Assembly: GCA_943788175.1 (NCBI GenBank)
Contig: CALSPG010000008.1
Span: forward strand, 1 to 64,000
DNA from: an uncultured bacterium
GTDB lineage: Bacteria; Fidelibacterota; Marinisomatia; Marinisomatales; UBA1611
Length of the DNA: 64,000 bases
Direction of reading: 5' to 3'
The translations under genes were made by a program, and so were the position numbers. This document shows, piece after piece, positions 10,730 to 39,790 of this stretch. The notes beneath the pieces were generated by a model that made no database searches, had not been told where the DNA came from, and saw only the letters and a program-made list of their open reading frames with translations. Each line of letters opens with the position of its first letter. Position 1 is the first letter of the stretch.

Positions 10730-10795
10730 TTTTTTATATCAAAACCCCCACATTCGTGGGGTTTTTTGTTTATGGGATGATGGGTAGATTCATAA

Positions 10796-11272
10796 GTGAA
10801 AAAAATAAAAGACAATAACATTCACCATTATATGGGAATCGAATTGAATATACAAACTTGGAATCTTCTTGATAAAGTGGATAGGAATGAGAATGATGAT
10901 AGAAGAATGGTGTATTTTGCAAAAGCATCTTTGTATCATTGGAAGAAGTCACCTCATTCTAAGCCTGTGAACCAACAGAGGGGAGAGTGGTTAATCTCTC
11001 GCATTTATGCAACCTTAAAGCAAGGTGGAAAATCTTTAGAGCACGCCAATACCTGTATGGATATTACAGAAGAAGAATCCTTAAAAGATTTTGATCTCGC
11101 CTATGCATATGAATGCAAAGCAAGGGCATTTGCTAGTCTTGGTGATTCAGAGAAAATGAATGATTGTTTTGTAAAGGCAAAAGATTTTGGTGAGCAAATT
11201 GAAAGTGAAAAAGATAGAAAAATATTCTTTAATGATTTATACAAAGACCCTTGGTACGAATGTTTAAAATAA
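10796..11272 (+). CDS. Conserved hypothetical alpha-helical protein
   Basis: ASLYHW...QRGEWLISRIYA...FDLAYAYE..ARA; bounded by junction repeats. Confidence 0.8.
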   Translation: MKKIKDNNIHHYMGIELNIQTWNLLDKVDRNENDDRRMVYFAKASLYHWKKSPHSKPVNQQRGEWLISRIYATLKQGGKSLEHANTCMDITEEESLKDFDLAYAYECKARAFASLGDSEKMNDCFVKAKDFGEQIESEKDRKIFFNDLYKDPWYECLK

Positions 11273-11356
11273 TTTACAAACCCTAGCCCCACATTCGTGG
11301 GGTTTTTTGTTTATAGCCTCTCACACATTGTAGGGTAATTTTTTGTAGATTTGGTT

Positions 11357-12271
11357 ATGATTAGGCGTATATCAATACTATTGTTTATTGGGTTGTGTTG
11401 GGGACAAGAAATTGTAGAAATCAAAACCGGTTCATTTTTTGGGATGTGCTCAGGCTATTGTCTTTCTGAATTAACTATAACCGAAAGTCAGGCTGATTAT
11501 AATATTTATGGATGGGATGAGAATGACCCTGTTTACCTGCCAGTGGAAATCAGTGATTCTGTTGATTCTATTGTTTGGGAAAACCTGAATACAGAGTTCA
11601 ATTTTGAATTATTTATGAGTTTAGATAGTATAATTGGTTGTCCAGATTGTGTAGATGGTGGTGCAGAATGGTTTGAGATTGTAACAAGTGATACATTAAA
11701 AAGAGTAACCATTGAATATGGTGATTCTCTTAATGGTTTAGATAGTTATATAAATTTACTTCGTACAATTCGACAAAGTTTTGAAGAGATTCAGAAGTGC
11801 TATTATACCCCGAACCCAGGTGTTTGTTTGGCCGCTATTACCAAGTATTATTTTGACCAAGAAGAGAACGAGTGTTTAGAATTCACTTGGGGAGGTTGCG
11901 GTGGATTAGTCCCATTTGAAACTATGGATGATTGTGAATCAAGTTGTATTGATGATGGTCAACAATTATCAACCCATATTTCTCATTATCCTGTTAAGTA
12001 TGAATTAAAAAATTGTTATCCCAACCCTTTCAACCCAGTCACAACTTTACGATATGACTTGCCACAAGATGGTTTAGTTAATATCACTATCTACGATATG
12101 ATGGGAAGGAAAGTCAAGACACTCATAAATGACTCACAAACTGCAGGATTCAAGTCAGTCCAATGGAATGCAACTAATGATAGAAATGAGCCTGTATCAG
12201 CGGGATTATATCTTTATACAATACAAGCAGGGGAGTATAGACAGACAAAGAAGATGATTCTTCTTAAATAG
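11357..12271 (+). CDS. Secreted protein with Kunitz/BPTI domain and FlgD-Ig/Por-like CTD
   Basis: CYYTPNPGVCLAAITKYYFD....CLEFTWGGCGG..PFETMDDCESSC; NPFNP...KKMILLK. Confidence 0.88.
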   Translation: MIRRISILLFIGLCWGQEIVEIKTGSFFGMCSGYCLSELTITESQADYNIYGWDENDPVYLPVEISDSVDSIVWENLNTEFNFELFMSLDSIIGCPDCVDGGAEWFEIVTSDTLKRVTIEYGDSLNGLDSYINLLRTIRQSFEEIQKCYYTPNPGVCLAAITKYYFDQEENECLEFTWGGCGGLVPFETMDDCESSCIDDGQQLSTHISHYPVKYELKNCYPNPFNPVTTLRYDLPQDGLVNITIYDMMGRKVKTLINDSQTAGFKSVQWNATNDRNEPVSAGLYLYTIQAGEYRQTKKMILLK

Positions 12272-12277
12272 ATAATT

Positions 12278-12505
12278 GGTTCAATTTCCACTACAGATTC
12301 ACTGGTAAAGTTTCATTTATAGAGGGTTTTCAGCCTCCTTTGGGAGCAGGAGGTCGGGAGTTCGAATCTCTCCACCCCGACACTTTAAAGCCTTATTTCT
12401 CGAGAAGAAATGAGGCTTTTTTCTTTGTAGGCTAGTTTAGTCTGATTTACTTAAAAACACCCTAAAAAGCACTGAATGCACTGGTAATACACTGGTCATT
12501 TTTTT
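12278..12505 (+). repeat. att unit 3: left arm, tRNA-Pro fragment (12333-12381), right arm
   Basis: Near-identical to units at 14603 and 19621. Confidence 0.9.
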
Positions 12506-12528
12506 GTGGGAGGTGGGTAAACTTAGAT

Positions 12529-13755
12529 ATGAAAAAAATCAAACTTATATCAATTATAACTTTTTTGATTATTAAAAGTATAATCAATGCTCAGCCTATT
12601 CATAACATCATTTATGAAAATAAATTTCATCAAAGTATTTTACCTGAAAATCTTAATACAGCATTTTATTTATTTGATTATATAGATTCGTTTTCAATAT
12701 CTAAGGCTAATTCTGTATTTCAAAACGACTATGGTAATTCTATTCTTAGACTAAGTAAGATATTTTTTACGAATTACCTAGTTACTGATTATATGCTGAC
12801 AATGAATCATGAATTTGGGCATGGATATCGAATGATTGAAGCAGGTGGTACAATTAGAAAAATTGTTTACAATTGGCCACCACCATTTTCTAATAATTTT
12901 TCTTACATAACATTAGACTACCCAGCAAATTTCACAAAACAACAAGAATTAATGATAAATCTTGGAGGCTCTGAAATTAACTTGGTGTTTTCCGATATAA
13001 TGAGAAAAAATATTTTACTAGAAGAGAGGTTCAAGTATAATTATAGTTTTGCTTATTTATATAGCAGTAATGATATGCCTGGGTATACAGCATTTGTTAC
13101 AAGGCCAGAAGGTGACCCTGCTAGGTACAGGCAGAACCTAAATGAGTTTTATTATTCTGATAGAAAATTTTTAACCCGAGATAAGATAAAAAATTATTCT
13201 TACCTAGCACTTTTCACTGACCCAATGAATTTTTATGCTTTAAAATCTATTTTTTATGATTATGTAATAAAAGGAGAAAATAGTTCTAAAGTAGAGATGA
13301 TAAACCTTAATAGTAGTCTTAAATATCTACCAAGATTTAGGTTTGAGTACACTCCATATGGTCCAGAATTAGTATATCAGAATTATTTTAAATTTGGTTC
13401 TACACTCGCTCAGTTAAGTTTTAGCCATTCAGATTCTGAATTGCCAGATTCTTGGAGGCTTGCTGCAAATATTTGGAATGTAAAATTAATGGACAAACTA
13501 TCATTTAATTTTTCAGGCCAAATTTGGCATCAACCTGATATTGCATTTTATAAAAATGATAAATTAATAAATGTTGATGGATTGGGAGGGGAATTCATAT
13601 CTACTATTAATTATGACATGATTAAAAATAAACATCTTTATGGGTTAACATTTCAAATAGGATACAAATCAAGTGGTTATTCAATTGGTGAGCAATTATA
13701 TGAAGGAATGATAATAAGAGGTGGAGTATCTTTTCAATTAAATAAAGATAAATAG
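12529..13755 (+). CDS. Exported hypothetical protein, probable outer-membrane protein with HExGH motif
   Basis: Signal peptide; NHEFGHG; beta-strand-rich C-terminus. Confidence 0.75.
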   Translation: MKKIKLISIITFLIIKSIINAQPIHNIIYENKFHQSILPENLNTAFYLFDYIDSFSISKANSVFQNDYGNSILRLSKIFFTNYLVTDYMLTMNHEFGHGYRMIEAGGTIRKIVYNWPPPFSNNFSYITLDYPANFTKQQELMINLGGSEINLVFSDIMRKNILLEERFKYNYSFAYLYSSNDMPGYTAFVTRPEGDPARYRQNLNEFYYSDRKFLTRDKIKNYSYLALFTDPMNFYALKSIFYDYVIKGENSSKVEMINLNSSLKYLPRFRFEYTPYGPELVYQNYFKFGSTLAQLSFSHSDSELPDSWRLAANIWNVKLMDKLSFNFSGQIWHQPDIAFYKNDKLINVDGLGGEFISTINYDMIKNKHLYGLTFQIGYKSSGYSIGEQLYEGMIIRGGVSFQLNKDK

Positions 13756-13835
13756 AAATATATTTTTAGACATAACCCCCACATTGGTGGGGTTTTTTGT
13801 TTGTGGGATGATGATGTGTAGATTTATAAGCAAAA

Positions 13836-14300
13836 ATGAATAAGTTATCAAAACTTTATAAGAAAGATGTTTCTTCAATTGATTCTATAATTGATGCTTT
13901 ATATGAAATTATTTCTGGGGAAAAAGGTGAAGAAAGGGATTGGGACAGGGAAAGAAATCTCTTCTACCCTGAAGCACGATTAATTGTAGTAAAAAAAGAA
14001 GATAATCATCTTGAAACAAAAATAATGTCATCTGATGAATTTATTCAATATGCAAAACCTTTTATTGATGGGACAGGTTTTTATGAGTATGAAATTGCAC
14101 GAAAGGTAGAAGAATTTGGGCATGTTGTCCATGTTTGGTCTACCTTTGAAAGCAAATACTCTAAAGAAGATGAAAAGCCTTATACCAGAGGTATAAATAG
14201 TATACAATTACTAAATGACCAGAAAAGGTGGTGGGTTATGAATATTTACTGGAATAAAGAGACTGATGAATTCCCTTTACCAGAAAAATATTGTAATTAA
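13836..14300 (+). CDS. NTF2/SnoaL-like protein
   Basis: LYEIISG..RDWDR...FYEYEIAR...RGINSIQL...RWW. Confidence 0.8.
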   Translation: MNKLSKLYKKDVSSIDSIIDALYEIISGEKGEERDWDRERNLFYPEARLIVVKKEDNHLETKIMSSDEFIQYAKPFIDGTGFYEYEIARKVEEFGHVVHVWSTFESKYSKEDEKPYTRGINSIQLLNDQKRWWVMNIYWNKETDEFPLPEKYCN

Positions 14301-14355
14301 GAATCAATCTATCAGCCCCCCATACATTCTTGGGTAATTATTTGTAGATTGAGTA

Positions 14356-14535
14356 ATGAGTAAAAGAAGTATAATGTATGGTTTGGCTTATGGTACAAGC
14401 ATAGGAGTAGGAGTTGCAATAACTTTTGGTATTGCTCTTGAGAGTGTAGCCATCGGAATCTCAATTGGTTTAGGGTCTGGCATTTCATTGGGTGTGGCTT
14501 TGGCATTATTATTAAATAAAGGTAAAACCTGCTAA
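14356..14535 (+). CDS. 59-aa glycine-zipper membrane peptide (not in ORF track)
   Basis: MSKRSIMYGLAYGTSIGVGVAITFG...GISIGLGSGISLGVAL; ATG 5 nt after TAGATT; flanked by junction repeats. Confidence 0.75.
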   Translation: MSKRSIMYGLAYGTSIGVGVAITFGIALESVAIGISIGLGSGISLGVALALLLNKGKTC

Positions 14536-14602
14536 TCATAGGACTCATATTTAGTCTGATGTTATCAAGCCCCACATTAGTGGGGTTTTTTGTTTATAAA
14601 AT

Positions 14603-14826
14603 GGCTCAATTTCCACTACAGATACACTGGTAAAGTTTCATTTATAGAGGATTTTCAGTCTGTTTTGGGAGCAGGAGGTCGGGAGTTCGAATCTCTCCAC
14701 CCCGACGCTATTAAGCCTTGTTTCTCAAGAAGAAATGAGGCTTTTTACTTTCTAACCTGTTTTAGTCTGAATTCTTTAAAAATACCCTAAAAAGGACTAA
14801 TCGCACTGGTAATACACTGGTTATTT
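14603..14826 (+). repeat. att unit 4: left arm, tRNA-Pro fragment (14658-14706), right arm
   Basis: Same unit with 2 substitutions in the anticodon stem. Confidence 0.9.
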
Positions 14827-14912
14827 AAACACTAAATATTAACCTTAGTTAATTTATTTTAATTAAGTCTTTCTAATATGTCAGGTTTATAAAAAGCGAG
14901 GTAATTTTTATA

Positions 14913-15935
14913 ATGAAAAATTTAAAAATGACATCTTTGATGATGACAAAATATGGGAATATTAATGAATCCTTGGAGTTCCAAAAAGTTTCTAAACCAA
15001 CTATTGGTACTAAACAAATACTTATAAAAACTAAAGCAGCGAGTTATAATCCATTAGATTATAAAATTATTAGAGGAGATTTTAAGTCGGTTCGGAAAAT
15101 TGAATTTCCAAAAGGTATTGGAAGAGATGTAAGTGGGATCGTAGAGGAAATTGGACCTGATGTTGAGGGTTTTAAAGTTGGAGATAATGTATTTTCTCGA
15201 ATTAGTGAAGAGTGTGTTGGTACGATGGCAGAGTATGTAATTTCAAACGAGTCTGATGTCTCTCTAATGCCTTCAAATCTTAATTTTTTAGAATCAGCGA
15301 GTATACCTTTGGCTGGACTTACAGTTTATCAGTCTTTGATAGATATTGCGAAATTATCTGCTAAAGAGAATATTTTGATTTATGCTGGTTCTGGTGGTGT
15401 AGGAACTATTGCAATTCAACTTTCCAAATATTTAGGAGCAAATGTTACAACTACAACAAGTACAAATAATGTTGATATGGTCAAAAATTTAGGTGCTGAT
15501 AAGGTTATTGATTATACAAAGCAAAGTTTTCTTGACGATAATGAAAAGTATGATGTTGTATATGACACTTTGGGAGGCCAGCATACAGTTGATTCTTTTA
15601 AAGTTTTAAAAGAAAATGGGCGAGTAGTTTCTATCGCTGGAGATTTAGATGATATAACAGCAGAACAATTAGGTTTAAATAAGTTCATTCGTTTTATATT
15701 GTCTATGAAAGCAAGAAAAATTACAAAAGCGGCATCGAAGATTAATGCTTCCTATAGATTCTATCTTATGTCACCTAATGGTAAGCAATTAAATGAGTTG
15801 GCAAAACTTTATGAAAAAGAATCTATAAAACCAGTAATTGATAATACTTATACCTTTGAAGAAAGTATAGCGGCGATTGATTATTTATCTAAAGGGCGCG
15901 CCAAGGGAAAAGTAGTTGTAGAGTTTCCTGGTTGA
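14913..15935 (+). CDS. NADP-dependent oxidoreductase (MDR/quinone reductase family)
   Basis: NPLDYK, GRDVSG, AGSGGVG, GRAKGKVV. Confidence 0.93.
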   Translation: MKNLKMTSLMMTKYGNINESLEFQKVSKPTIGTKQILIKTKAASYNPLDYKIIRGDFKSVRKIEFPKGIGRDVSGIVEEIGPDVEGFKVGDNVFSRISEECVGTMAEYVISNESDVSLMPSNLNFLESASIPLAGLTVYQSLIDIAKLSAKENILIYAGSGGVGTIAIQLSKYLGANVTTTTSTNNVDMVKNLGADKVIDYTKQSFLDDNEKYDVVYDTLGGQHTVDSFKVLKENGRVVSIAGDLDDITAEQLGLNKFIRFILSMKARKITKAASKINASYRFYLMSPNGKQLNELAKLYEKESIKPVIDNTYTFEESIAAIDYLSKGRAKGKVVVEFPG

Positions 15936-16034
15936 ATGAAATTTTAGAATCTTTATACATCAAGCCCCACATTCGTGGGGTTTTTTGTTTATAGCCCCGC
16001 AAACATTGTAGGGTAATTATTTGTAGATTAAAAA

Positions 16035-16331
16035 ATGAAAATCACTTTAATAGCATTCGCTTTATTATTAGTTCTATCTTGTAGAACTGAAGAAGATACT
16101 TTTCTATGTAGTGCAAAGGCGACATTAAGAGATTTTACAGGATTGGATGGTTGTTCTTATGTATTAGTCCTCGATGATGAGGAAGTTCTTGAAATTGGAG
16201 ATTTAGAATTTGAGCCAGATTTTAAATTTAGAGATGGGTTGAGAGTTAGCGTTACTTATGAAGAATTAAGTAGTTCAAGTGTTTGTATGGTTGGTTCAAT
16301 AGTAAGAGTGCTATGTATAGACCCGATTTAG
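16035..16331 (+). CDS. Small Cys-containing lipoprotein
   Basis: VLSC lipobox; DFTGLDGC...SVCMVG. Confidence 0.8.
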   Translation: MKITLIAFALLLVLSCRTEEDTFLCSAKATLRDFTGLDGCSYVLVLDDEEVLEIGDLEFEPDFKFRDGLRVSVTYEELSSSSVCMVGSIVRVLCIDPI

Positions 16332-16436
16332 TATGATCTCCTTAAAAACACCCTAAAAAGCACTAAATACACTGGTAATACACTGGTCATTTTTCCAAGG
16401 TTTTTTGTTTCAGGGATGATGGGTAGATTTTTATAT

Positions 16437-16889
16437 ATGAAAATAGAATCTTATCAGCAAAAGCATTTTGAAAGTTGTATGGAAATTATTCAAAGTAATA
16501 CCCCCAAATATATTTTACCTTTTGAGCATTTAGATTATAAAAATTATTTATCAAGGAAAAGCAAAACATATTTTGTTTTTTTTAAAGATAATGATCTCGT
16601 CGCTTGTGGTGGTTATGGTTTAAATAAAACAAAAACAAAAGCAGGCTTATCCTGGGGATTAGTTCATAGAAGATACCATAACCAAGGATATGGAAGTCAA
16701 TCGATTAAATATCGATTACATCATATTAAAAGTGATTATCCAGATATTGAAATTCATTTAGATACAAGCCAACACACCTATCTATTTTTTTTTAAGTTTG
16801 GTTTTATAATCAAACAAATAACAAAAAATGGATATGGTAAAGGACTTGATAAGTATGATATGATTTTAAAAGAAGATTCAAATCTTTGA
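16437..16889 (+). CDS. GNAT N-acetyltransferase (copy 1)
   Basis: ACGGY, WGLVH...NQGYG, LDTSQHT; near-identical to 21767-22219. Confidence 0.88.
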   Translation: MKIESYQQKHFESCMEIIQSNTPKYILPFEHLDYKNYLSRKSKTYFVFFKDNDLVACGGYGLNKTKTKAGLSWGLVHRRYHNQGYGSQSIKYRLHHIKSDYPDIEIHLDTSQHTYLFFFKFGFIIKQITKNGYGKGLDKYDMILKEDSNL

Positions 16890-16937
16890 TATCCCCACAT
16901 TCGTGAGGTTTTTTGTTTATGGGTGATGAGTAAATAC

Positions 16938-17231
16938 TCAATCTCCAGCAAATGGTGTCCCAAATAATCCAACTCCAAGTTCAGCCCAAATAAGAAGAAA
17001 CATCATTACTATAATTACTATAAATACCTCTCTATATTTATAATATTTAACCTTTTTAAGTACTATTCCAATCAATAAACCAATGATGGTGAGCAATGCC
17101 CCCATAATTATAAAATCATAAAAAGACCAGTTTACTTCATCGGTTAATTGCATCGCTATCAATGGGATTAAAAGTAAGAGCCCAACTATAGGCAAGATTT
17201 TAATCATCATATTTAACAGAAAATATAACAT
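16938..17231 (-). CDS. Small membrane protein (copy 1; start uncertain)
   Basis: LIPLIAMQ.TDEVNWS..DF...LIWAELGVG.FGTPFAG. Confidence 0.8.
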   Translation of the reverse strand: MLYFLLNMMIKILPIVGLLLLIPLIAMQLTDEVNWSFYDFIIMGALLTIIGLLIGIVLKKVKYYKYREVFIVIIVMMFLLIWAELGVGLFGTPFAGD

Positions 17232-17448
17232 TTGTATTCTCATACCTTCATTTGTATAAATCAGTTCCACATTCGTGGGGTTTTTTGTTTACAGCCCCGC
17301 ACACATTGTAGGGTAATTATATGTAGATCAATAGGTAATTAAGTATCTTTTTTTGAAAATAAGTTTTAAGTAATACTTAAACTATTTTGTATTATACTTA
17401 ATACTGACTATATTCCACTTTAATAATCTAAATTATCGAATCTATAAT

Positions 17449-17739
17449 ATGCCTATTTCAATTCATCTAGATACTATGTTAGTAAAGAGAAAAATCTCAC
17501 TCACCGAACTATCGAAAGCAGTAGGGCTTTCTTTGACAAATTTATCTATGTTAAAAAATGGAAATGTTAGAGGTGTTAGGTTTGAAACTTTAGAAAAAAT
17601 TTGCATTGTATTGAATTGTCAGCCTGGAGATCTACTTGAATACCAGCCTTATACAGATGAAAAAAATGACAAAAATAGAAGAGATATATTTGAAATAATA
17701 AGTAAGAATCTTATGAAATTGAAAAACAAGGAGACTTAA
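17449..17739 (+). CDS. Xre/YozG-like HTH regulator
   Basis: SLTELS...NLSMLKNG...RFETLEKIC..L.CQPGDLLEY. Confidence 0.92.
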   Translation: MPISIHLDTMLVKRKISLTELSKAVGLSLTNLSMLKNGNVRGVRFETLEKICIVLNCQPGDLLEYQPYTDEKNDKNRRDIFEIISKNLMKLKNKET

Positions 17740-17740
17740 T

Positions 17741-18082
17741 ATGTTAGAAAATTTATTAAATGGTGGACCTTTTATGATGGTATTATTCTTATTAGTTGGT
17801 GGTATCATTTTTATTTCAGTAAAAAATATCAAAGAGCCCTATAATACAAATAGTATTGTGTTGTTAGGTATTTTCAGTGCTTTAGTTGGTATCTCATCTA
17901 CCTACATTGGAATTAATGCCGCATTTAGTCTAGTACCAGAGATTAGTAATATTTCACCTCAGGTTTTAATTAATGGCATAAAGACATCATTAATTACATC
18001 ATTTACTGGGGGAATTATTATGCTCATTTCAACAGCGCTATGGTACTTCTTTATAAAACGACACAATCTGCTTGTTGTTTAG
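17741..18082 (+). CDS. Three-TM protein, MotA/TolQ/ExbB-like
   Basis: GGPFM N-terminus; three TM helices; ISPQVL.NGIK.SLIT. Confidence 0.7.
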   Translation: MLENLLNGGPFMMVLFLLVGGIIFISVKNIKEPYNTNSIVLLGIFSALVGISSTYIGINAAFSLVPEISNISPQVLINGIKTSLITSFTGGIIMLISTALWYFFIKRHNLLVV

Positions 18083-18147
18083 ACTTTCCCGCATTTATGG
18101 GGTTTTTTGTTTGTGGGATGATGGGTAGATTTGGAGAAGAATAATTC

Positions 18148-31450: not shown

Positions 31451-32062
31451 ATGGATATTAAAACACTTATAGGGATGTCTTTTGTTTGTGCGATGGGTGC
31501 TATATCACCTGGACCAAGCTTGGTTGTCGTTTTGAGGAATACTGTCTCTGGTGGAAGAATTTTAGGAGTAATGACAGGAATAGGCCATGGTATTGGACTA
31601 ACTGTTTATGCCTTTATTGCAGTAATGGGTTTATCTTCTGTCCTAATAGCCAATGAGCAGATATTTAAGTCACTACAATGGGCTGGAGCATTAGTTCTCA
31701 TATGGCTGGCTTTTAATTTGATTACTAACAAGCCATCAAATGCAACTAAGAGTTACAATTCCAGCGGACGCAAAGGCTTTTTGGAAGGTTTTATGATTTC
31801 TTTTTTGAATCCTAAGATTCTTGTTTTTATGGTCGCAGTTTTTAGTCAATTTATAAATCCCGACATAACTAATATTGGTCGTTTCATCATGGCTATTGTA
31901 GCTGGGGTCATTGATACCACTTGGTATGTTTTGGTGGCTATGGTTTTTTCTGGAACTTCGATGGTGGATAAATTAAGACTTCATGCAGGTATCATTGATC
32001 GTTTTATCGGTATAGTGCTTCTTGCCCTTGCAATGATTTTAATTATTAAAACAATGAATTAA
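31451..32062 (+). CDS. LysE/RhtB family exporter
   Basis: SPGPS, F..GF...NPK. Confidence 0.93.
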   Translation: MDIKTLIGMSFVCAMGAISPGPSLVVVLRNTVSGGRILGVMTGIGHGIGLTVYAFIAVMGLSSVLIANEQIFKSLQWAGALVLIWLAFNLITNKPSNATKSYNSSGRKGFLEGFMISFLNPKILVFMVAVFSQFINPDITNIGRFIMAIVAGVIDTTWYVLVAMVFSGTSMVDKLRLHAGIIDRFIGIVLLALAMILIIKTMN

Positions 32063-32166
32063 GGTTTATTATATTATTTTTTTAAGACAATATGATAACT
32101 AAAAGCTTTTACAACCCCCAACTGTCGTTGGGTTTTTTATTTACAGAATAGTAGTTAGATTGTATT

Positions 32167-32349
32167 ATGAACAAAATTAGTGAATGGTTTAAAAAAAATG
32201 AACGCTTCATTATTGGACTTGGTGTAATTCTAGCTATACTAAATATTCCAAGTCTATTACCTTTAGAGGAAATTAGTATCGTTCCGATTGTCATAATTGT
32301 TTGGTTGTTTTACACTATATATGCAAATGAAAGATGGAAGGGATTTTAA
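32167..32349 (+). CDS. Small two-TM membrane protein
   Basis: ATG 5 nt after TAGATT, downstream of a junction-repeat variant. Confidence 0.65.
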   Translation: MNKISEWFKKNERFIIGLGVILAILNIPSLLPLEEISIVPIVIIVWLFYTIYANERWKGF

Positions 32350-32353
32350 AATA

Positions 32354-32920
32354 ATGGGAATCATTAGTGCTGATAAATCAATAAATGAAAATAGTGGACG
32401 ATTGGAAATACAATATCATAAAACAAAAATTGGAGAATTAGTTTTAGGTTCCTATGATAGTAAGCTTTGCTTACTTGATTTCAGATATAGAAAAATGCGA
32501 TTCGCAGTTGATAATCGTTTAAAAAAAACATTAAATGCAAAATTCGTAGTTCAAGATAATAAAATATTAAAAGAAACGCGGAAACAGATAACTGAATACC
32601 TCGGGGCAGAAAGAAAAACATTTGATTTGCCAATTTTATCTGTTGGAAGTGATTTTCAAAAACAAGTTTGGGAGGCATTATTAAAAATAAATTATGGAGA
32701 AACCGCATCTTACCTAGATATAGCAAAGTATATTGGGAATGAAAAAGCAGTAAGGGCCGTTGCCTCCGCAAATGGTGCAAATGCTATAGCCGTTATAATA
32801 CCCTGTCATAGAATTATTGGAAGTGATGGTGAGCTTGTTGGTTATGGTGGAGGATTACCAATAAAGAAAAGATTATTAAACTTAGAAGAAAAGCATTCAA
32901 AACTTGCTAATCATTTGTAA
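32354..32920 (+). CDS. ogt: Methylated-DNA-protein-cysteine methyltransferase
   Basis: RAVA.ANG.N, active-site IPCHRII, GYGGG. Confidence 0.93.
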   Translation: MGIISADKSINENSGRLEIQYHKTKIGELVLGSYDSKLCLLDFRYRKMRFAVDNRLKKTLNAKFVVQDNKILKETRKQITEYLGAERKTFDLPILSVGSDFQKQVWEALLKINYGETASYLDIAKYIGNEKAVRAVASANGANAIAVIIPCHRIIGSDGELVGYGGGLPIKKRLLNLEEKHSKLANHL

Positions 32921-32927
32921 AAATTTA

Positions 32928-33089
32928 ATGTTCAAGCAAAAACCATCATTTTATGTCTCAATTATTTTTCCATTGCTATGCTTCCTTTCAACATCTCAAA
33001 TAAATAACAGAGGTGGAGAGTTTTTATTTTATTTTTTAGGGGTATGTAGTCTGGCCTGTATGCTTGCTTTTATTTTCACTGATAAATGA
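32928..33089 (+). CDS. Possible small membrane protein
   Basis: Two hydrophobic segments after ATG 32928. Confidence 0.35.
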   Translation: MFKQKPSFYVSIIFPLLCFLSTSQINNRGGEFLFYFLGVCSLACMLAFIFTDK

Positions 33090-33202
33090 GTTAAAGACTT
33101 TGCTCAATTCTTTAGATATTTCAGGTGTCGAATAACTCATCAAAACATGAATTGCGTTTCAATATTTAGTAGAATTTAGATCTTATATATTATCCAGGAT
33201 TT

Positions 33203-33616
33203 TTATTCAATTTCTAATAATTCTATATCAAATATTAAAGTTGCATTAGGTGGGATTACGCTGCCTGCACCTTGTGAACCATAACCCAGATTTGGTGGAA
33301 TAGTTAATCTTCGTGTGCCACCAATTTTCATCCCAGGGACACCTTCATCCCATCCTTTAATAACGACACCAATGCCGACTGTAAATGAAAATGGTTCACG
33401 GTTTGGATTTTTTGATGAATCAAAAATTATTCCATCTGTCAATTTTCCTGTGTAGTGAACGGTTACATTGTCCATTGATTTTGCTTCAGCGCCATCGCCA
33501 ATCACAAGATCCTCAATAATAAGTTCGCCTGTCATAGTTTCTCCTTGCTCTTCACAACTAATACTAAAAAGTAATATGGATATTATTATCAAATGTAAAA
33601 TGTTAAATTTCTTCAT
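33203..33616 (-). CDS. FKBP-type peptidyl-prolyl isomerase lipoprotein
   Basis: VHYTG.L.DG..FDSS, VIKGWDEG, IPPNATLIFDIEL; SISC lipobox. Confidence 0.93.
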   Translation of the reverse strand: MKKFNILHLIIISILLFSISCEEQGETMTGELIIEDLVIGDGAEAKSMDNVTVHYTGKLTDGIIFDSSKNPNREPFSFTVGIGVVIKGWDEGVPGMKIGGTRRLTIPPNLGYGSQGAGSVIPPNATLIFDIELLEIE

Positions 33617-33661
33617 TAGTTGCTTATTTTTTCTTTTAAACCAACATGAAATTAATTGTTT

Positions 33662-34972
33662 ATGGATCAAACTCAAACGCTCTTCGATACTCACTTACCT
33701 CCATTAGCGGAGCGTCTTCGTCCAACTAATATAAATGATTATAAAGGGCAATCACACTTAGTTGGCAATGGAAAAATTCTGAAAACAATTATTGAAGAAA
33801 AAAAAATATTTTCTATGATACTTTGGGGTCCACCTGGTACAGGTAAAACAACCCTTGCGCGTATAATTGCTCAAAAAACTAATGCCGTCATTAAAGAAAT
33901 ATCAGCTATCTCTAGCGGAGTGAAAGATTTACGTGGGGTTATTTCAATGGGTAAGTCTAATCGAGAGATGGGTAAACAAACTCTCTTATTTATCGATGAA
34001 ATTCATCGGTATAATAAATCACAACAAGATGCACTTCTTAAAGCTGTTGAGGAAGGCACTGTTAATCTTATTGGTGCGACTACAGAGAACCCTTCTTTTG
34101 AAGTTATATCGCCACTTCTATCTCGATGCAAAGTTTTAACTCTAAAGTCCTTAGAAGAATCTCATCTAGAATCCATTTTAAATCATGCATTCGATACTGA
34201 TATTATTTTGAGTCAAGCGGGTATTACAATAGGAAGTGATGTCCAAAAAAAGCTTATTAAATCAGCTGGTGGAGATGCAAGAAAAATGCTAAATACCTTG
34301 GATGTGGCTGTGCAATTATTAGGAGAAGAAAAAGAGATCACGGATCAAATTTTTTCTGAAGCGGCACAATCTAAAACATTGATTTATGACAAAAAAGGCG
34401 ATTATCATTATGATACAATTAGTGCTTTCATAAAATCTGTAAGGGGTAGCGATCCTGATGCTGCTATTTATTGGCTAGCTGTAATGTTAGAGGGAGGTGA
34501 AAAACCTGAATTTATAGCCCGAAGGCTTATCATTTTAGCTTCTGAGGACGTTGGGAATGCTGATCCAAATGGATTAATCATTGCAACGTCTGCTTTTCAA
34601 GCTGTTCATATAATTGGCATGCCAGAAGCATCTATTATCTTAGGTCAAATAACAACCTATCTTGCAAGTGCTCCAAAATCAAATGCTTCTTATGAGGCTA
34701 TTAATCAAGCACGTGACTATGTGAAGGAGAATGGTGCGCCATCTGTACCTCTTCATTTGCGAAATGCACCCACAGGGCTGATGAAAAATTTAGATTATGG
34801 TAAAGAATATAAATATCCTCATTCGCATCCAGACCATTTTGTAAATGTGAATTATTTACCAGAAAAAAATGATGTAAATTTTTTTAAACCGTCTAACCAA
34901 GGGCATGAAAAATGGATAAAAGAAAGGTTGCAATCTTTATGGGGAGATAGATTTATATATGAAAAAAAATAG
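33662..34972 (+). CDS. rarA: Replication-associated recombination protein A
   Basis: [39 protein letters not shown]. Confidence 0.96.
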
Positions 34973-35459
34973 GTTATTTATTTATTTTTTTTTCATTATT
35001 TCATACAGCTTTTCAGGTGACAATCATTGGACTGAAAGTAGTTTTCCGGGAGGATATCTGAGCCTAGGTATTCAAATGGGAAAAACAAAAGACAATTCCA
35101 GGTTCATAGATATTCAAATTAGTCCATCATTTGTATTAATTGGACCATATAAACATAAGTTTTCAGGGTATATATTTTTAGGTAGTTCAATAGGGAAAAG
35201 ACTTAGTAAAGAGAAATCTAATATTTATTTCGATGTTAATTTAAATTTTTGGAATACGTTATTAACACTTGGAGGAGGGAAAGGTTTTATTCTAGATAAA
35301 GATGAGAAATACCTAAGAAATAAAACCTGGGCTGGTTTAGGTTTTTTACCTCTGATAGTATGTACTGATAATTATATTATTGATAAAAATAAATATAAAC
35401 AGGCTGGGATTATGGGAGTGCTTCCTTTCCCTTTTTTTGGCAACAACTTTTACCCATAG
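34959..35459 (+). CDS. Exported hypothetical protein
   Basis: Signal-like N-terminus; overlaps rarA stop. Confidence 0.7.
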   Translation: MKKNRLFIYFFFIISYSFSGDNHWTESSFPGGYLSLGIQMGKTKDNSRFIDIQISPSFVLIGPYKHKFSGYIFLGSSIGKRLSKEKSNIYFDVNLNFWNTLLTLGGGKGFILDKDEKYLRNKTWAGLGFLPLIVCTDNYIIDKNKYKQAGIMGVLPFPFFGNNFYP

Positions 35460-35592
35460 AAAGTTTAATTATTGTTCATTACGAGATGTCTTTGTTTTGC
35501 TAACTAATGTTATGATAAATATTATTTAATTATTTGCAAATAATATTAGTTGTACAATTTTAGTAATCTTAATTTCGCCACCTTATATTGTA

Positions 35593-35727
35593 ATGAAAAG
35601 AAGTACGATGTTTACTACAGCAAGAGAGCGGAGACGAAGACGAAGACGATTTATTGTCGACAGAATCAATAATGTTCGATCTAGAAATGCGCAATGGTAT
35701 CCCGTTAAAAGACAAGATATTTTGTAG
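35593..35727 (+). CDS. Possible 44-aa Arg-rich small protein
   Basis: MKRSTMFTTARERRRRRRRFIVDRINNVRSRNAQWYPVKRQDIL; GC-richer than flanks; followed by junction repeat. Confidence 0.45.
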   Translation: MKRSTMFTTARERRRRRRRFIVDRINNVRSRNAQWYPVKRQDIL

Positions 35728-35908
35728 CATTATTTTTAGATAAAGGAGACTAGAACATATTGTTTTATTTTATTTTTTCTAAAAATATAAAATCACCAAA
35801 AAGCCCCACATCTGTGGGGTTTTTTACTATAAACCAAAATATTTTTTAACTTTTTTTTTAAAGATGAGTCTAATTAGTATAGAGTAATAAAAATAAAAAG
35901 GCATTATT

Positions 35909-36283
35909 ATGATTAAATATTTATTAATTATTATTATCTTTTTGTCTTCTGTATTTGCTGATGGCCCCGGTAATAAACGTTGGAAAAAAGGGCATAAGAA
36001 ACACTACAGATATAAAAAACATAAAACCCACAAAGTAGTACATCACACTAGACCAAATGTAAAAATTAAATATGGATATCATTGGTGTTTAACTCCATGG
36101 AGGAACCTTTATCCAAGACATAACCATAATAATGTGGTGGTTATAAAAAATGAAGATAATGTTTTAAATGATAGTTCAGATGTTTTTGAAAAAATTCAAC
36201 AATTAGGCGCTTTAAAAGAAAGTGGTCTAATCACTGAAAAAGAATTTTTAAAAGCAAAAAAAGTACTATTAAAGAAGATTTAA
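35909..36283 (+). CDS. Exported His/Lys-rich protein with C-terminal SHOCT domain
   Basis: Signal peptide; LGALKESGLITEKEF.KAKKVLL. Confidence 0.8.
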   Translation: MIKYLLIIIIFLSSVFADGPGNKRWKKGHKKHYRYKKHKTHKVVHHTRPNVKIKYGYHWCLTPWRNLYPRHNHNNVVVIKNEDNVLNDSSDVFEKIQQLGALKESGLITEKEFLKAKKVLLKKI

Positions 36284-36418
36284 AATAAAATAGAGGGCAT
36301 CAAAAAACTATTTGATAATTTTGTTGGCGTGCTCAAGTTCTGTTTCGGATAGATACTGAGTGTATCCTTAAATTTTTTCAACGACTAAAAAAACACTTTT
36401 TATCTGAGCTCATAAATT

Positions 36419-37117
36419 TTATACTAGAATTTGTTTTTTATCTTCCTGAGTATTTTCATAAAAATCAGTGATGTATGGTTTAAGTATGTACATTGCCTCG
36501 TCAACATCTTGTACAATAATAATATTTTTAAAATCATTTTTACCGATTAGGTTCTTCTTCAGAGGCTCTGATTTCATCCAATCAATTAAGCCTCCCCACA
36601 TTCCTCCTAATAATATTATTGGTCTCTCAGAAATGTGTTGGACTTGAATTAATTGCCATGTGTACAATAACTCAAGGATTGTACCAATCCCACCTGGGGT
36701 TACAATTACAGCGTGACTGATACGCATAAATTCATCTAATCTTGATGAGAATCTTTTATGATGGTAAGTAACATCAAGGTGGTCATTGGGGGTTGTTTCA
36801 AAGGGTAAATCAATATGGAGTCCAATTGATTTTGAATCTGATCCACCATCCTTAGCGCCTGCATTGGCTGCTTCCATTAGACCTGGCCCGCCACCAGTGA
36901 CGATATCTGTTTTATTTTGAGCAAGCTTTTTAGCAAGTGTATATACTTGAGTGTAGTCAGAAGTCCCTTCTTTTATTCTTGCAGACCCAAAAATACTCAC
37001 TCTATAATAATTGCTTCCAATCTCTGTAACTAAAGAGTCTAAATCGGCTACAATATTATTTAGCTGTTGAATTTTTTTTGAAAGAAACTTCCTTACTACT
37101 TTTTCTTTAATTTGCAT
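36419..37117 (-). CDS. LOG family nucleotide phosphoribohydrolase
   Basis: SIFGSAR, TGGGPGLMEAAN, PGGIGT..EL. Confidence 0.92.
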   Translation of the reverse strand: MQIKEKVVRKFLSKKIQQLNNIVADLDSLVTEIGSNYYRVSIFGSARIKEGTSDYTQVYTLAKKLAQNKTDIVTGGGPGLMEAANAGAKDGGSDSKSIGLHIDLPFETTPNDHLDVTYHHKRFSSRLDEFMRISHAVIVTPGGIGTILELLYTWQLIQVQHISERPIILLGGMWGGLIDWMKSEPLKKNLIGKNDFKNIIIVQDVDEAMYILKPYITDFYENTQEDKKQILV

Positions 37118-37301
37118 CTAAATCTCACTTTCATATTCCTTTAAATATTAACTGCCTTGGAATATAATGTAAAAATTAATGCTTTGATTGATGAATTAAT
37201 CATAAAAATTCACTTTTTAGTTTTTTGTTTGTGGAAAAATAATATTTTTAATTATATATTGAGTTAATATAAAATAAGAAAAATATAAGGTATAAAGAAT
37301 T

Positions 37302-37628
37302 ATGAGCGATGATAGTATTTTTGATGATATAAATCTGACAAAGAAAAAGACGATTACAAATGGTAAGAAGTATGACTTCTATGTATTTAAAACTCTCAAA
37401 CTGGAAAAAGAGATTTCTAAAGGTAAGTTTGGAAAAGGCGATACCTCAATAAGTCAAATTAAGAATTATAAACTTATTGATGATGAAGGTGATGATCTGC
37501 TAGATGTAAAGTTACAGTGTTCTAAAAAGTTAGATGATGCAATGACTGGATTTACACCAAAAGAAGCAAAAAAAGTAATGGACGAGGTTCTTAAAAGGTT
37601 GATGAAGATAGGTCTAGTTAAAGTATAA
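37302..37628 (+). CDS. Hypothetical protein
   Basis: 108-aa ORF followed by junction repeat. Confidence 0.7.
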   Translation: MSDDSIFDDINLTKKKTITNGKKYDFYVFKTLKLEKEISKGKFGKGDTSISQIKNYKLIDDEGDDLLDVKLQCSKKLDDAMTGFTPKEAKKVMDEVLKRLMKIGLVKV

Positions 37629-37695
37629 AATTTTTTAGGTCCAATTTTTAGTTAAGCCCCACTTACGTGGGGTTTTTAATTTTCGGGATACAATT

Positions 37696-37714
37696 AATGC
37701 GATTGATTCTCAAT
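37696..37714. promoter_or_regulatory. Fur-box-like site
   Basis: AATGCGATTGATTCTCAAT resembles the palindrome at 58950. Confidence 0.45.
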
Positions 37715-37741
37715 TTCATTTTTATTAAATTCCAGATACTT

Positions 37742-37825
37742 ATGAAATCGAAATGTTGCAAAAAGTTCAAGAAAAAAGGCAAGTGGTGCAAAAAATGCCC
37801 GAAACTCAAAAAGCCCAATAATTAG
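37742..37825 (+). CDS. 27-aa Cys/Lys-rich peptide
   Basis: MKSKCCKKFKKKGKWCKKCPKLKKPNN; CC-x9-CxxCP. Confidence 0.55.
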   Translation: MKSKCCKKFKKKGKWCKKCPKLKKPNN

Positions 37826-37944
37826 CCCAGGAATTTTTTTTAGTTTTTTGACCTCAATTTTTTTAACCTAATCATACTTATTGAGTCTAATCATTATAAT
37901 CAACCAAAATTTTGTAAAAAAACCATAAAAAGAGAAAGTCTAAA

Positions 37945-39687
37945 ATGAAACTAATTATCACACTTTTTATTTTATCAGTATCCATTTACAGTCAGTGTGA
38001 AGACGGAGAATTTTCTACAAATGGAATTCTAGATAGTATTAGTGTAGAAATTTTTAATGATGACGAATCTGTAAATGCATATAGCGTTTATTCTTGGACT
38101 TCTGATGAGCTTAATAGAATATTATCTGGCAATGGAATTCCAAATCATGAGGTTGGAACATTTCCTAACCCAAACAACCCGAACACTATCAGTGAGCAAA
38201 ATGTAAATGAATCTTTTACGCTCTGTCCAACATTAGTTTCAGAGACTGGTGAGCCAGCTGGAGGTCCCGCTGGTGCGATAGCTTTCGCTATTAACAGTGT
38301 GAAATTTGATCCTGCCACTGCAGGAAGGTGCAATGATGATGGTGAATGCAGTCTTGCTCAGGGACAAGGAAATTGGAGCATAGAGGCTCTTGGTCATGAG
38401 ACATTTGACTTTGGCGATGACATGAATCATGCTCATGTGCAGCCAACGGGGGAATATCACTATCATGGTATGCCAGAATTACTAATAGATTTTTTAGGAG
38501 ATAATCAAGGTATGACTCTTGTTGGGTGGGCCTCAGATGGTTTTCCAGTTTATGCCAGGTACGGTTACACAGATTCAAATGATTCAACTAGTGAATTAAT
38601 ATCGCTTCAACCAAGTTATAGATTGAAATCTGAACCTGATCTAAACCGTCCAGAAACGTTAACCTCCTTAGCAGGTGGACCTGGACAGGGCGGAACAACG
38701 CCTAATACACCAATACCGATGGGCGCTTTTACTCAAGATTTTGAATATGTTGAAGGATTAGGAGATTTAGATGAGTGTAATGGCAGGTTTGGAGTCACTC
38801 CAGAATTCCCAAATGGTATCTATTACTATTCAGTCACTGATGATTTTCCATATTTTACAAGGTGCTTGAAAGGTGAATTTGACACTGCTGGTGGTGGCGG
38901 TGGTGTTGTGGATTGTGAAGATGTACCCGCCGGTTTACCATGTTGTGGCGATGGCGCATGTGGTGGCCCTGAAACAGAAGATAATTGTCCAATTGATTGT
39001 GCAACATCGATTGTTCCTCCAGAATTAAATAGTTTTAGTCTTTCTGCTGATAGTGTAAATACTAGTCTCAATGCAGCTATTGTTATCTACAATATTGGAG
39101 CTAGTTCCTATAATGCTACTCTTTCTAGCTATTCTTTGAAATTAATATTAAATGGTGGTCCAATTAACGGAGGAGAAATAATTGAAGAGTCGGGACTATT
39201 TAATGAAGGGCTCTATGAAACTACAATCTCTGGATATTTTTTATTTCCAGCTGAGTCTAGTGAGGGGCAATGGAATGTAAGAGTTGAATTAAATGATATA
39301 AACGATAATTCAATAAATTTGAGCCCAAGTGATTTAGCGCAAAAAAACTTTCAAAATTACATCATTGTTGATAATGCTTCTCTGGGAATACCAGGAGCTG
39401 AATTACCATTACATTTTTCTTTAGATCAAAATTTCCCTAACCCGTTTAACCCCTTGACCTCCCTAAGATATGCAATTCCAGAGAGTGCAATTGTAAAAAT
39501 AACTGTTTATGATGTTCTAGGAAATATTATCAAAAATATTATAAACGAAAAACAATCACCGGGATTTAAAACAGTGCAATGGGATGCAACAAATAATTTA
39601 GGCGAACCAGTTTCTGCTGGATTATATATCTACAGTATAGAAGCCGGGGATTTTAGACAAACAAGAAAAATGATACTTTTAAAATAA
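37945..39687 (+). CDS. Secreted YHYH-domain protein with CTD
   Basis: AHVQPTGEYHYHG, GWASDGFPVY, GDLDECNGR; CTD. Confidence 0.9.
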   Translation: MKLIITLFILSVSIYSQCEDGEFSTNGILDSISVEIFNDDESVNAYSVYSWTSDELNRILSGNGIPNHEVGTFPNPNNPNTISEQNVNESFTLCPTLVSETGEPAGGPAGAIAFAINSVKFDPATAGRCNDDGECSLAQGQGNWSIEALGHETFDFGDDMNHAHVQPTGEYHYHGMPELLIDFLGDNQGMTLVGWASDGFPVYARYGYTDSNDSTSELISLQPSYRLKSEPDLNRPETLTSLAGGPGQGGTTPNTPIPMGAFTQDFEYVEGLGDLDECNGRFGVTPEFPNGIYYYSVTDDFPYFTRCLKGEFDTAGGGGGVVDCEDVPAGLPCCGDGACGGPETEDNCPIDCATSIVPPELNSFSLSADSVNTSLNAAIVIYNIGASSYNATLSSYSLKLILNGGPINGGEIIEESGLFNEGLYETTISGYFLFPAESSEGQWNVRVELNDINDNSINLSPSDLAQKNFQNYIIVDNASLGIPGAELPLHFSLDQNFPNPFNPLTSLRYAIPESAIVKITVYDVLGNIIKNIINEKQSPGFKTVQWDATNNLGEPVSAGLYIYSIEAGDFRQTRKMILLK

Positions 39688-39790
39688 GCATATATTTTTC
39701 AATATTTTAAACCCCACATTAGTGGGGTTTTTTGTTCATAAGAATTTTTGTAGATTTTTATTTATTTTATTAAATACTTAAGGATTATAT

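Follow-up and report, generated by a model that had tools for sequence, protein, structure and literature searches.

How does a bacterial chromosome come to carry one small hairpin nearly twenty times, always in the same orientation, between genes that are otherwise unrelated? The question is raised by the first 64,000 nucleotides (the window) of contig CALSPG010000008.1, here called C8, from assembly GCA_943788175.1 of an uncultured marinimicrobial bacterium (Fidelibacterota; Marinisomatales; UBA1611). The hairpin, H, reads CCCCAC-ATTC-GTGGGG followed by TTTTTTGTTT (T6-GTTT). In other words, it is a perfect 16-nt palindrome region, made of a 6-bp stem and a 4-nt loop, that runs into a T-run. 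An original prediction, made from the letters of the window, saw in H a cassette junction with the role, though not the sequence, of the attC site of integrons. Our analysis upholds the junction but favours another explanation for it. With a probability of roughly 0.55, H belongs to a composite terminator/promoter cassette junction of ~55 nt, similar to the promoter-early stem-loops (PeSLs) of T4-type phages, which would insulate the genes on either side of it and provide the homology by which they are shuffled.

The copy number was established in several ways. The pattern CCCCACNNNNGTGGGGTTTTTT, with up to two mismatches in 22 nt, has 18 matches in the window, comprising 15 plus-strand sites (10746 to 39712) and three minus-strand matches that are the same palindromes in reverse reading. 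A shuffled sequence has 0.00. Scanning the window with the 26-mer at up to six mismatches gives 18 sites, all on the plus strand (10746 to 39737), and repeat-family detection likewise returns 18 copies of a 36-nt unit that contains H. One more copy, degenerate, is known only from a repeat family (D3, 23040-23075), bringing the total to ~19. The original prediction had spoken of about 20 copies, in one orientation and none to the right of ~40 kb, and all of this holds. No copy lies to the right of 39737, either in the window or in the remainder of C8. The genes that the copies separate are unrelated to each other (pyrophosphatase, Kunitz/type IX secretion system (T9SS), alcohol dehydrogenase (ADH), GNAT, GH16, glyoxalase, PhzF, esterase and others).

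H is specific to one variable island of about 30 kb. The assembly measures 2.27 Mb (33% G+C, 12 contigs), and 14 of its 15 H matches with up to three substitutions lie inside C8:10746-39712. When the 26-mer is allowed up to five mismatches, the sole copy outside the island is at C2:46657. Two modules that commonly follow H, module A (TGGGATGATGGGTAGATT) and module B (ending in GGGTAATTATTTGTAGATT), are nearly as restricted. Their few outside matches lie near other tRNA- or integrase-associated stretches (C2 32-47 kb and C5 326.7 kb). The core stretch next door (40.3-60.2 kb) carries 13 terminator-like hairpins with 13 different sequences, none of which is H. Therefore, given the single outside copy and the differing core hairpins, H is not an ordinary, general terminator of this organism. 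A DNA uptake sequence was also considered and was ruled out because H is not genome-wide. An assembly artefact was ruled out by the single-cell genome AG-404-J18, which has several H copies on one contig. Rfam (gathering thresholds) recognises only a partial tRNA in the window (8340-8399) and has no family for H, the A and B modules or the arms described below.

The constant orientation is most striking around two genes on the minus strand (16938-17270 and 23088-23420). Both encode real small membrane proteins, identical to each other at 95 of 111 residues, and both are flanked by plus-oriented H copies, as the original prediction had noted from the copies at 17267 and 23417. The cassettes that contain them (16893-17329 and 23043-23476) are paralogous, each with a minus-strand gene for a three-helix membrane protein of ~110 aa. 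A reversed membrane gene between plus-oriented H copies also occurs in other genomes (e.g., G006:C10:8394-8838). A promoter for the reversed gene would have to be read leftward from the H-B junction, and the reverse complement of B (17293-17329) contains TATAAT.

What would such a hairpin do? The position of H relative to genes is one clue. A same-strand open reading frame (ORF) of at least 60 codons ends no more than 80 nt upstream of 154 of 192 non-redundant copies, at a median distance of 24 nt. Another clue is the fold, in which a G+C-rich stem of 6-9 bp carries a tetraloop and precedes a U-tract; its free energy is -13.6 to -17.6 kcal/mol, with z from -3.0 to -6.1. H thus has the features by which Rho-independent terminators are recognised, namely a GC-rich stem-loop with a T-run, just past a stop codon and on the coding strand. 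Terminator-like sites as a whole are in excess in the island (27, compared with 7.6 +/- 2.9 in shuffled sequence), and number 13 in the neighbouring core stretch (7.8 +/- 3.4 when shuffled). Some copies of module A are preceded by other hairpins in place of H. Covariation in the stem is modest (25 both-side cells versus 13.8 +/- 3.3, a value reached in 2 of 500 shuffles), since unrelated hairpins and right arms stand beside H in the A-anchored set. Across 114 unique exact copies from many genomes, conservation extends from -7 to +45 only, and the flanks (from -8 and from +46) carry no information. The consensus of the whole junction is ..ATCAAG CCCCACATTCGTGGGG TTTTTTGTTT GTGGGATGATGGGTAGATT, then ~5 nt, then ATG.

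The second half of the junction looks like a promoter. H usually runs into A or B, and the modules end in TAGATT. Among 58 A-anchored copies at loci that were not picked by H, the T-run with GTTT, ATGAT and TA.ATT are at least 90% conserved, irrespective of whether the upstream partner is H, another hairpin or a right arm. Each cassette has a TAGATT module in front and a terminator-like hairpin behind. The distance to the next gene is telling. Among 173 non-redundant A/B modules, the next ORF (at least 50 codons) has its ATG exactly 5 nt past TAGATT in 57, which is the largest class, and 6-11 nt past it in 22; in 40 there is no such ORF within 60 nt. Longer leaders often contain AAGGAG. This geometry suggests a -10 box set for leaderless transcripts, plus a second class with a leader and a Shine-Dalgarno box. 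Judging from the spacing, both the promoter activity of A and B and the leaderless starts are predicted features of the junction. Module A can also be described as two tandem 8-mers, TGGGATGA and TGGGTAGA, and GTGGG stands on both sides of the T-rich stretch. Perhaps A, or the GTGGG motif, may be a candidate binding site for a regulator of the whole cassette pool.

The junction is not a peculiarity of one genome. Allowing up to two mismatches, we find H in 32 of 36 further genomes from the family, in 15 genera and with up to ~20 copies each. Elsewhere in the order, 5 of 24 genomes from other families have it. The reversed pattern, used as a control, has no match in any genome searched. The exact 26-mer occurs in at least 130 stretches of a species-representative genome collection. 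Among the matches listed, nearly all carry Marinimicrobia or Neomarinimicrobiota in their title or are marine metagenome-assembled genomes without one; one is a single-cell genome with several copies, and a few are short contigs in otherwise labelled bins. Many copies lie less than 300 nt from a contig end, as expected for a repeat in variable contexts.

Phages of these bacteria appear to have it too. Exact H is present in five IMG/VR contigs. In four it stands after a tail-sheath gene and before a tail-tube gene, within a myovirus-like cluster and with no att context. These are contigs L140, L142, L143 and L144 (H at positions 1223, 3088, 3033 and 2877, respectively), which have 35-39% G+C. 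In the fifth, H is followed by module A; the exact 25-mer of module A is otherwise absent from IMG/VR. The location between the sheath and tube genes suggests that H may serve as an attenuator there. Exact H could also be used as a host-link marker for Marinimicrobia phages.

The cassette junction can also be judged by where homology stops. When 8400-28300 was compared with 54 genomes of the family, it gave cassette-sized matches of ~70-96% identity on scattered contigs and in varying orders. Island cassettes recur one by one in other genera and in other contexts. For example, 12479-13830 (right arm, gene, H and A) has a 94% identical counterpart in G076, which belongs to a different genus. 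The esterase cassette (25311-26638) and the ADH cassette (14812-16021), 9 kb apart here, are neighbours in G003, the closest relative. The alignments (at least 300 nt and 78% identity, with ends at locus edges dropped) have 90 distinct homology ends. Junction modules make up 7.8% of the span; 28 of these ends fall inside one and 55 within 10 nt of one, compared with 10.3 +/- 3.0 within 10 nt for random placement (maximum 20 in 2000 trials). On the evidence of these alignments, the units that genomes share and reshuffle end at the junction. Two outcomes had been named beforehand as speaking against the original prediction, and both were looked for. One was a repeat equally frequent behind core genes, and the genome-wide map has a single copy outside the island. 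The other was a lack of coincidence between breakpoints and the repeat, and here the two do coincide.

The exceptions are mostly left ends ~300 nt upstream of H. They correspond to the C-terminal sorting domain shared by different T9SS-secreted proteins. Since many homology ends begin at this block, cargo domains may be swapped ahead of a common tail. Five T9SS cassettes in the island share such a 3' block (12018-12317, 19361-19660, 21441-21740, 26343-26642 and 39434-39733), so that the sorting domain of ~300 nt plus H makes a longer conserved 3' block of 60-80% identity. The right third of the span behaves differently. From 31800 to 40300 it is syntenic with G003 (89-95% identity, three contigs) and includes housekeeping-type genes (FKBP isomerase, RarA/MgsA, MGMT), and its H copies are sparser and have diverged further. 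True hypervariability is confined to about 8.4-31 kb.

Do the halves of the junction recombine at one point? The original prediction held that they reassort at the T-rich core. It is true that different left and right combinations meet there. What follows H was tallied for 250 non-redundant copies (up to three mismatches). Module A follows in 136, both halves of B in 15 and one half of B in 4. Mixed continuations (B with the left arm or B with A) number 3, the left arm alone 4 and the right arm 3, and 85 copies are followed by none of A, B or the arms. Conversely, 29 right arms run into A in 6 cases, into B in 6 and into neither in 17. Two paralogous GNAT cassettes (16399 and 21729) are 94% identical from GGTTTTTTGTTT on, although one stands after a right arm and the other after H. 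Because their homology starts there behind different upstream partners, the junction lies at the 5' edge of the T-run. However, a site-specific crossover does not follow. The T-run serves H as its U-tract and is also the upstream portion of A, where it hardly varies, which means that the two modules overlap by 10 nt. Since it is common to both, recombination anywhere in either module would yield the same picture.

How might all of this fit together? In the explanation we favour there would be two tiers. The first is shown by the anatomy of the island: a tyrosine integrase and attP-like junctions (see below) delimit small tandem elements, the traces that successive integrations at one tRNA site leave. 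At the second, within and between these elements, each gene would be a self-contained expression unit. H would terminate transcription ~24 nt past the stop codon, and its U-tract with GTTT would overlap the upstream part of A or B, which ends in the -10-like TAGATT. In the largest class, with the ATG 5 nt past TAGATT, a leaderless mRNA is predicted; the others would have a longer leader, often with AAGGAG. In this way the junction would insulate each acquired gene transcriptionally. Its 26-55 nt of shared homology would also let cassettes be gained, lost and reordered. The junction can supply such short homology because the same sequence flanks unrelated genes across the family and its phages. 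The right arm, and the left arm plus core, may act as shuffling homology likewise, while the integrase/att level would deliver and stack the small elements. We infer that the shuffling proceeds by homologous rather than site-specific recombination.

Several observations weigh against this explanation. The promoter half is not a textbook one. A sigma-70 consensus scan does not detect A or B and has no excess in total (89 versus 112 +/- 10.9). The -35 side is unlike that of a textbook promoter because the TTG is just 15-16 nt upstream of TAGATT. Genome-wide, TANNNT at -11 of first ATGs is weakly enriched (57 versus 16 per 1000), so leaderless initiation is not established as a habit of the organism. 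The RNA runs among the public data are kept as contigs, without power to show where transcripts start or end. There are also difficulties with the terminator half. H keeps its orientation even around the two reversed genes, which a pure terminator would not predict. The exact 26-mer, including a loop that is in no way special, is kept across 15 genera, which is more than terminator function needs. This excess of conservation was pointed out in the original prediction and is real, although composite PeSLs provide a known precedent for it. It has to be assumed that homogenisation by recombination, or repeated transfer, is the cause. Identity in the alignments described above is 91.0% for H, 91.1% for A/B and 81.0% for the rest, and H exceeds the rest in 41 of 50. 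These figures speak for the favoured explanation, but part of the loci were fetched by exact H, which biases the identity of H upward. Finally, the modules are common to both sides of every junction, which makes exact crossover positions unresolvable. An attempt to pair H variants with the genes before them and A variants with those after them located no crossover, because H differs among homologous cassettes with no informative pattern.

The island is anchored at a tRNA gene. The ORF at 7401-8327 encodes a tyrosine integrase (Pfam Phage_integrase and Phage_int_SAM_5; PHROG 1 integrase, 1.1e-33) and abuts the last ~50 nt of a tRNA-Pro(TGG) gene at 8340-8400. The integrase belongs to a tRNA-Pro-integrated element whose left end is beyond the contig start. 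At least 8.3 kb of this element are present at the start of C8, and the integrase and the partial tRNA-Pro close it off. None of the 10 ORFs to the left of the integrase (160-6966) could be assigned to a Pfam or PHROG family with significance; a single weak Y_Y_Y match stayed below the cut-off. There is no intact tRNA in the window according to ARAGORN. There are six partial tRNA 3' cores (8371, 9929, 12352, 14677, 19695 and 27506). The 30-nt tRNA-Pro 3' core of the first recurs in those at 9929, 12352, 14677 and 19695. The one at 27506 is closer to the tRNA-Val of contig C5. Each core is followed by a second terminator hairpin (term2), a stretch that we call pre-R and a right arm, GCACTGGTAATACACTGGTCATTT. 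Five junctions also have a left arm upstream, carrying ..CACTGGTAAAG... With their arm-type repeats these junctions are attP-like, and they are what one would expect from tandem integrations into a single att site. The C5 tRNA-Val(TAC) site has its own partial duplicate 10 kb away (C5:326474 and 336440) and a degraded integrase with three stop codons (C5:335401-336258). This second island family, at tRNA-Val, seems to exchange parts with the tRNA-Pro island, as the junction at 27506-27571 would indicate.

The assembly also holds the other state of the tRNA-Pro site. At its end, contig C7 has an intact pair of tRNA-His and tRNA-Pro genes and, beyond it, sequence that is 99.5% identical to C8:8351-10080. 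With the tRNA pair intact and followed by this match, the C7 end (C7:407050-410257, tRNA pair then island) is a variant that lacks the integrase-bearing element, i.e., an empty site. In a congener, G006, an island with the same modules likewise begins directly after tRNA-His and tRNA-Pro, and all 15 H copies of that genome are on this island contig and on one strand. The C7 variant has an extra cassette of ~900 bp (C7:408807-409703) that is absent from C8. It encodes an HxlR-type regulator and, on the minus strand, a membrane protein, and within the 99.5% identical flanks it has a right arm of ~39 nt at either end. Therefore, a junction module other than H or the tRNA core also acts as a boundary. 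The polymorphism fits recombination at any shared junction module.

Read from left to right, with every feature on the plus strand, the island shows how these parts combine. An attR-like junction at 8340-8520 (3' part of tRNA-Pro(TGG), term2 hairpin, pre-R and a right arm with tandem CACTGGTAA-type repeats) is followed at 9929-10078 by a partial tRNA-Pro with term2 and a right arm, and no left arm. Directly after this arm is a short type-B promoter-like box (10079-10103), with the ATG of the pyrophosphatase gene at 10113. An exact H found by the pattern scans, the terminator scan and folding (10746-10771) leads into module A (10773-10790). Another exact copy (11287-11312) leads into module B (11315-11351), with the ATG of the Kunitz/T9SS gene 5 nt past TAGATT. 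A complete attP-like junction (left arm, partial tRNA-Pro, term2, pre-R and right arm) comes next at 12280-12501 (repeat families D2 and D5), with an A-like box after it (12502-12524). An H with the loop ATTG (13777-13802) precedes a variant of module A (13807-13824). At 14314-14350 there is a module B with no H before it, and a small membrane ORF starts at 14356, 5 nt past TAGATT. The H at 14570-14595 runs into an att left arm, which opens a complete attP-like junction (14605-14826).

Further along, an exact H (15965-15990; pattern scans and fold) is joined to module B (15993-16029), again with an ATG 5 nt past TAGATT. At 16340-16392, pre-R and a right arm alone, with no tRNA core, serve as a gene junction. 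They are followed by a T-run plus module A (16399-16429; family D7), where the homology with the GNAT cassette at 21729 starts exactly. The membrane cassette has an H with one mismatch on its left (16893-16918) and, at the 5' end of the minus-strand gene, an H (17265-17290) with module B (17293-17329). An H variant, TCCCGCATTTATGGGG (18087-18112), precedes an exact module A (18114-18131), and a complete attP-like junction occupies 19623-19844. Degenerate H then module A (20306-20350), exact H then exact module A (21715-21759) and degenerate H then an A-like box (23040-23086; family D3) come next. The copy at 23415-23476 goes directly into a right arm, and the one at 24373-24398 has one mismatch. 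A degenerate att junction at 25210-25341 has a left arm, pre-R and a right arm; no tRNA core was found in it. Degenerate H copies at 26617-26642 and 28641-28666 lie on either side of an att junction (27434-27703) whose core is like the 3' end of the C5 tRNA-Val copies and which continues into a right arm and module A. The remaining copies are variants with a compensated stem (CCCAAC...GTTGGG, 32117-32142), the loop ATCT (35804-35829) and the loop TTAC (37657-37682), and the last copy (39712-39737), which lies at the right edge of the island. The continuations listed in the original prediction can thus be located, with type A at 10773, 13807, 18114, 20333 and 21742, type B at 11315, 15993 and 17293, and a left arm at 14605. 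Right arms that run into A or B are found at 10079, 12502, 16393-16429, 19845 and 27678-27703.

What if all mobility takes place at the att level? Every cassette could have begun as a one-gene integrative mini-element (right arm, promoter, gene, H, left arm and tRNA core) that the integrase delivered. The H-A junctions would then be scars of an att segment deleted between two TTTTTTGTTT runs, and H and A would be regulatory only. We consider this unlikely, though it is the best of the alternatives. The full colinear order of H, left arm, core, term2, right arm and A does exist (14570-14826, and 12280-12524 after the Kunitz gene), as do intermediates in which H leads into the right arm, or into B with the left arm behind it. 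The same T-run stands behind both H and the right arm. Moreover, this island and others are dotted with partial tRNAs and degraded integrases, much as outlined for the tycheposon islands of Prochlorococcus (bioRxiv 10.1101/2020.12.28.424599). However, A follows H in 136 of 250 copies and the left arm in ~6, so the deletion would have to be nearly universal and always precise. The units that different genera share, at up to 94% identity, have their ends at H-A or the right arm and not at tRNA cores, as 12479-13830 does against G076. In addition, exact H occurs in phage contigs with no att context.

A less probable alternative is the one proposed originally. Here H and the T-rich core together would play the role of an attC, with a recombinase that excises single-gene cassettes and inserts them site-specifically at TTTTTTGTTT. 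The enzyme would be the island integrase acting on a secondary site, or an unrecognised one, and the terminator and promoter properties would be secondary. The uniform orientation of H, reversed genes included, is what such a site would show. GTGGG on either side of the T-rich spacer, and inverted in the 5' arm, would suit it as well, as would an exact 26-mer that is kept across 15 genera and is more conserved than the genes, and a tyrosine integrase at the head of the island. Tyrosine recombinases use an overlap of 6-8 bp, for which a 4-nt spacer is too short, and the spacer of the palindrome has only 4 nt. The apparent meeting of the halves at one point (H to A in 136, to B in 15 and to the left arm alone in 4; right arm to A in 6 and to B in 6) is explained with no enzyme by a T-run that lies in two overlapping modules. 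The one recent indel is bounded by right arms and not by H.

The distribution of the enzyme is a further problem. A co-occurring recombinase, or a transposase of the REP-associated type, had been suggested as a partner for H, and neither emerged. Among the 54 family genomes (its own included), the integrase has close full-length homologues in only three others, plus one copy with a stop codon and some fragments, against H in 32 of 36. Genomes with 16-21 H copies (G014, G017 and G030) have no close homologue of it. Nor is it an integron integrase, since it scores 49.7 bits against TIGR02249 (cut-off 265) and 30.8 against NF011946 (cut-off 435). The genome, which is 92% complete, has no match to the REP-associated tyrosine transposases (RAYT; Y1 transposase, PF01797), and a reverse transcriptase was not found in it. 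The same idea can be extended to Marinimicrobia and their phages as a group, which would then share a non-integron, hairpin-directed cassette system with H and the T-rich core as its site and either an unrecognised recombinase or the tRNA-Pro integrase as its enzyme. This is a long shot. If true, it would make the tRNA-Pro island a two-level gene-capture platform to which genes bring their own leaderless promoter.

Finally, it is very improbable that H is a small non-autonomous mobile repeat, like a miniature inverted-repeat transposable element or a repetitive extragenic palindrome (REP), that inserted itself between genes: H is short, palindromic, multi-copy and present in many genomes, and the GTAG in the boxes that end the modules presumably resembles the REP tetranucleotide, but the flanks, uninformative from -8 and +46, show neither target duplications nor, outside the stem, terminal inverted repeats, the position is fixed relative to both the stop codon (median 24 nt) and the next ATG (5 nt), core intergenic regions lack H, with one copy outside the island, and no Y1 transposase was found.

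Public sequencing runs were also searched for the island. Their contigs break at the modules, in DNA and RNA runs alike. The joints listed (for example, 10790 to 21718, 8523 to 15962 and 21760 to 24363) have sides of no more than 35 nt, which fall in repeated modules, and such joints are evidence neither of transcripts nor of reliable alternative junctions. The stretch 9900-19899 has at least 0.89 of its 31-mers in 14 DNA runs from at least six studies dated 2014-2024, and two RNA runs hold 0.86 and 0.75 of its words. Because 14 DNA runs hold this stretch, individual cassettes are widespread and stable in sequence, though their order varies. There is a practical side to this. Marinimicrobia (SAR406) are abundant uncultured ocean bacteria whose gene exchange is little known. 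With its 26-55 nt, the junction is a simple marker by which their flexible gene pool can be traced in fragmented metagenome assemblies, whose contigs often end right at it, and it ties phage contigs to this host group. The findings suggest that accessory genes circulate in these bacteria singly and ready for expression, each equipped with the standard terminator and a promoter that is probably leaderless.

How does this arrangement compare with known systems? It resembles an integron in being a one-directional array of mostly single, unrelated genes, each with a palindrome at its 3' end, and in having a tyrosine recombinase at its head. However, attC sites are imperfect inverted repeats of 57-141 nt with R/L boxes, whereas H is a perfect 16-nt palindrome with a 6-bp stem and a 4-nt loop, in a junction conserved from -7 to +45. 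The original prediction was right to say that this is not attC sequence. Furthermore, the integrase is not IntI, the cassettes appear to carry their own promoter, and the array is anchored at a tRNA gene with lambda-type arms.

At the level of the whole island there is a likeness to the tycheposon islands of Prochlorococcus. As outlined in that preprint, these are also tRNA-adjacent, with an integrase beside a partial tRNA, further partial tRNAs, degraded integrases and small strain-variable cassettes (bioRxiv 10.1101/2020.12.28.424599). Unlike tycheposons, the island described here belongs to another phylum, its units are far smaller (1-5 genes, often one), and no replication or packaging genes were recognised by Pfam or PHROG among the 10 ORFs to the left of the integrase. 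The main text of the preprint has no occurrence of 'terminator', Marinimicrobia or SAR406. Phage morons and 'promoter reuse', as presented in PMC3575422, provide another parallel, since they too involve an autonomous promoter-gene-terminator unit between genes and similar promoters before unrelated genes. They differ in that here one terminator-promoter pair is reused dozens of times per genome, throughout a family, and is confined to islands. No description of junctions like these turned up in searches of the literature, outside subscription journals, on islands, integrases, hypervariable regions and gene cassettes of Marinimicrobia/SAR406.

The best match is the PeSL. PeSLs are composites of a stem-loop terminator and a strong promoter found in the hyperplastic regions of T4-type phages, where modular shuffling occurs by recombination between motifs and mini-circles are formed (Arbiol et al., 2010, PMC2839356; Comeau et al., 2014, PMC4122927). 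As they are outlined in these two papers, PeSLs combine a terminator stem-loop and a promoter in one short intergenic motif, and the junctions described here would do the same. Both are concentrated in hypervariable regions, before small genes that are mostly accessory or of unknown function. In both, indels and replacements have their boundaries at the motif, which keeps its sequence between genes that are not otherwise related. There are also differences. The junctions described here lie in an island of a bacterial chromosome (exact H in five phage contigs notwithstanding) rather than in a T4-type phage genome with early sigma-70 promoters. Their promoter part has no sigma-70 match and is seemingly built for leaderless starts. 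The hairpin is always upstream of the promoter and shares its U-tract with it, and the whole is layered on an integrase/att system. Mini-circles and promoter and terminator activity are features of PeSLs, while the junctions here are known from sequence. What is new, as this comparison suggests, is that PeSL-like cassettes stand in a bacterial chromosome and are combined there with an integrase array anchored at a tRNA gene and with a promoter that appears to be leaderless. If this is confirmed, it would provide testable promoter and terminator parts for a phylum that has no genetic system, and would extend the use of regulatory cassettes as recombination anchors from T4-type phages to the bacterial chromosome.

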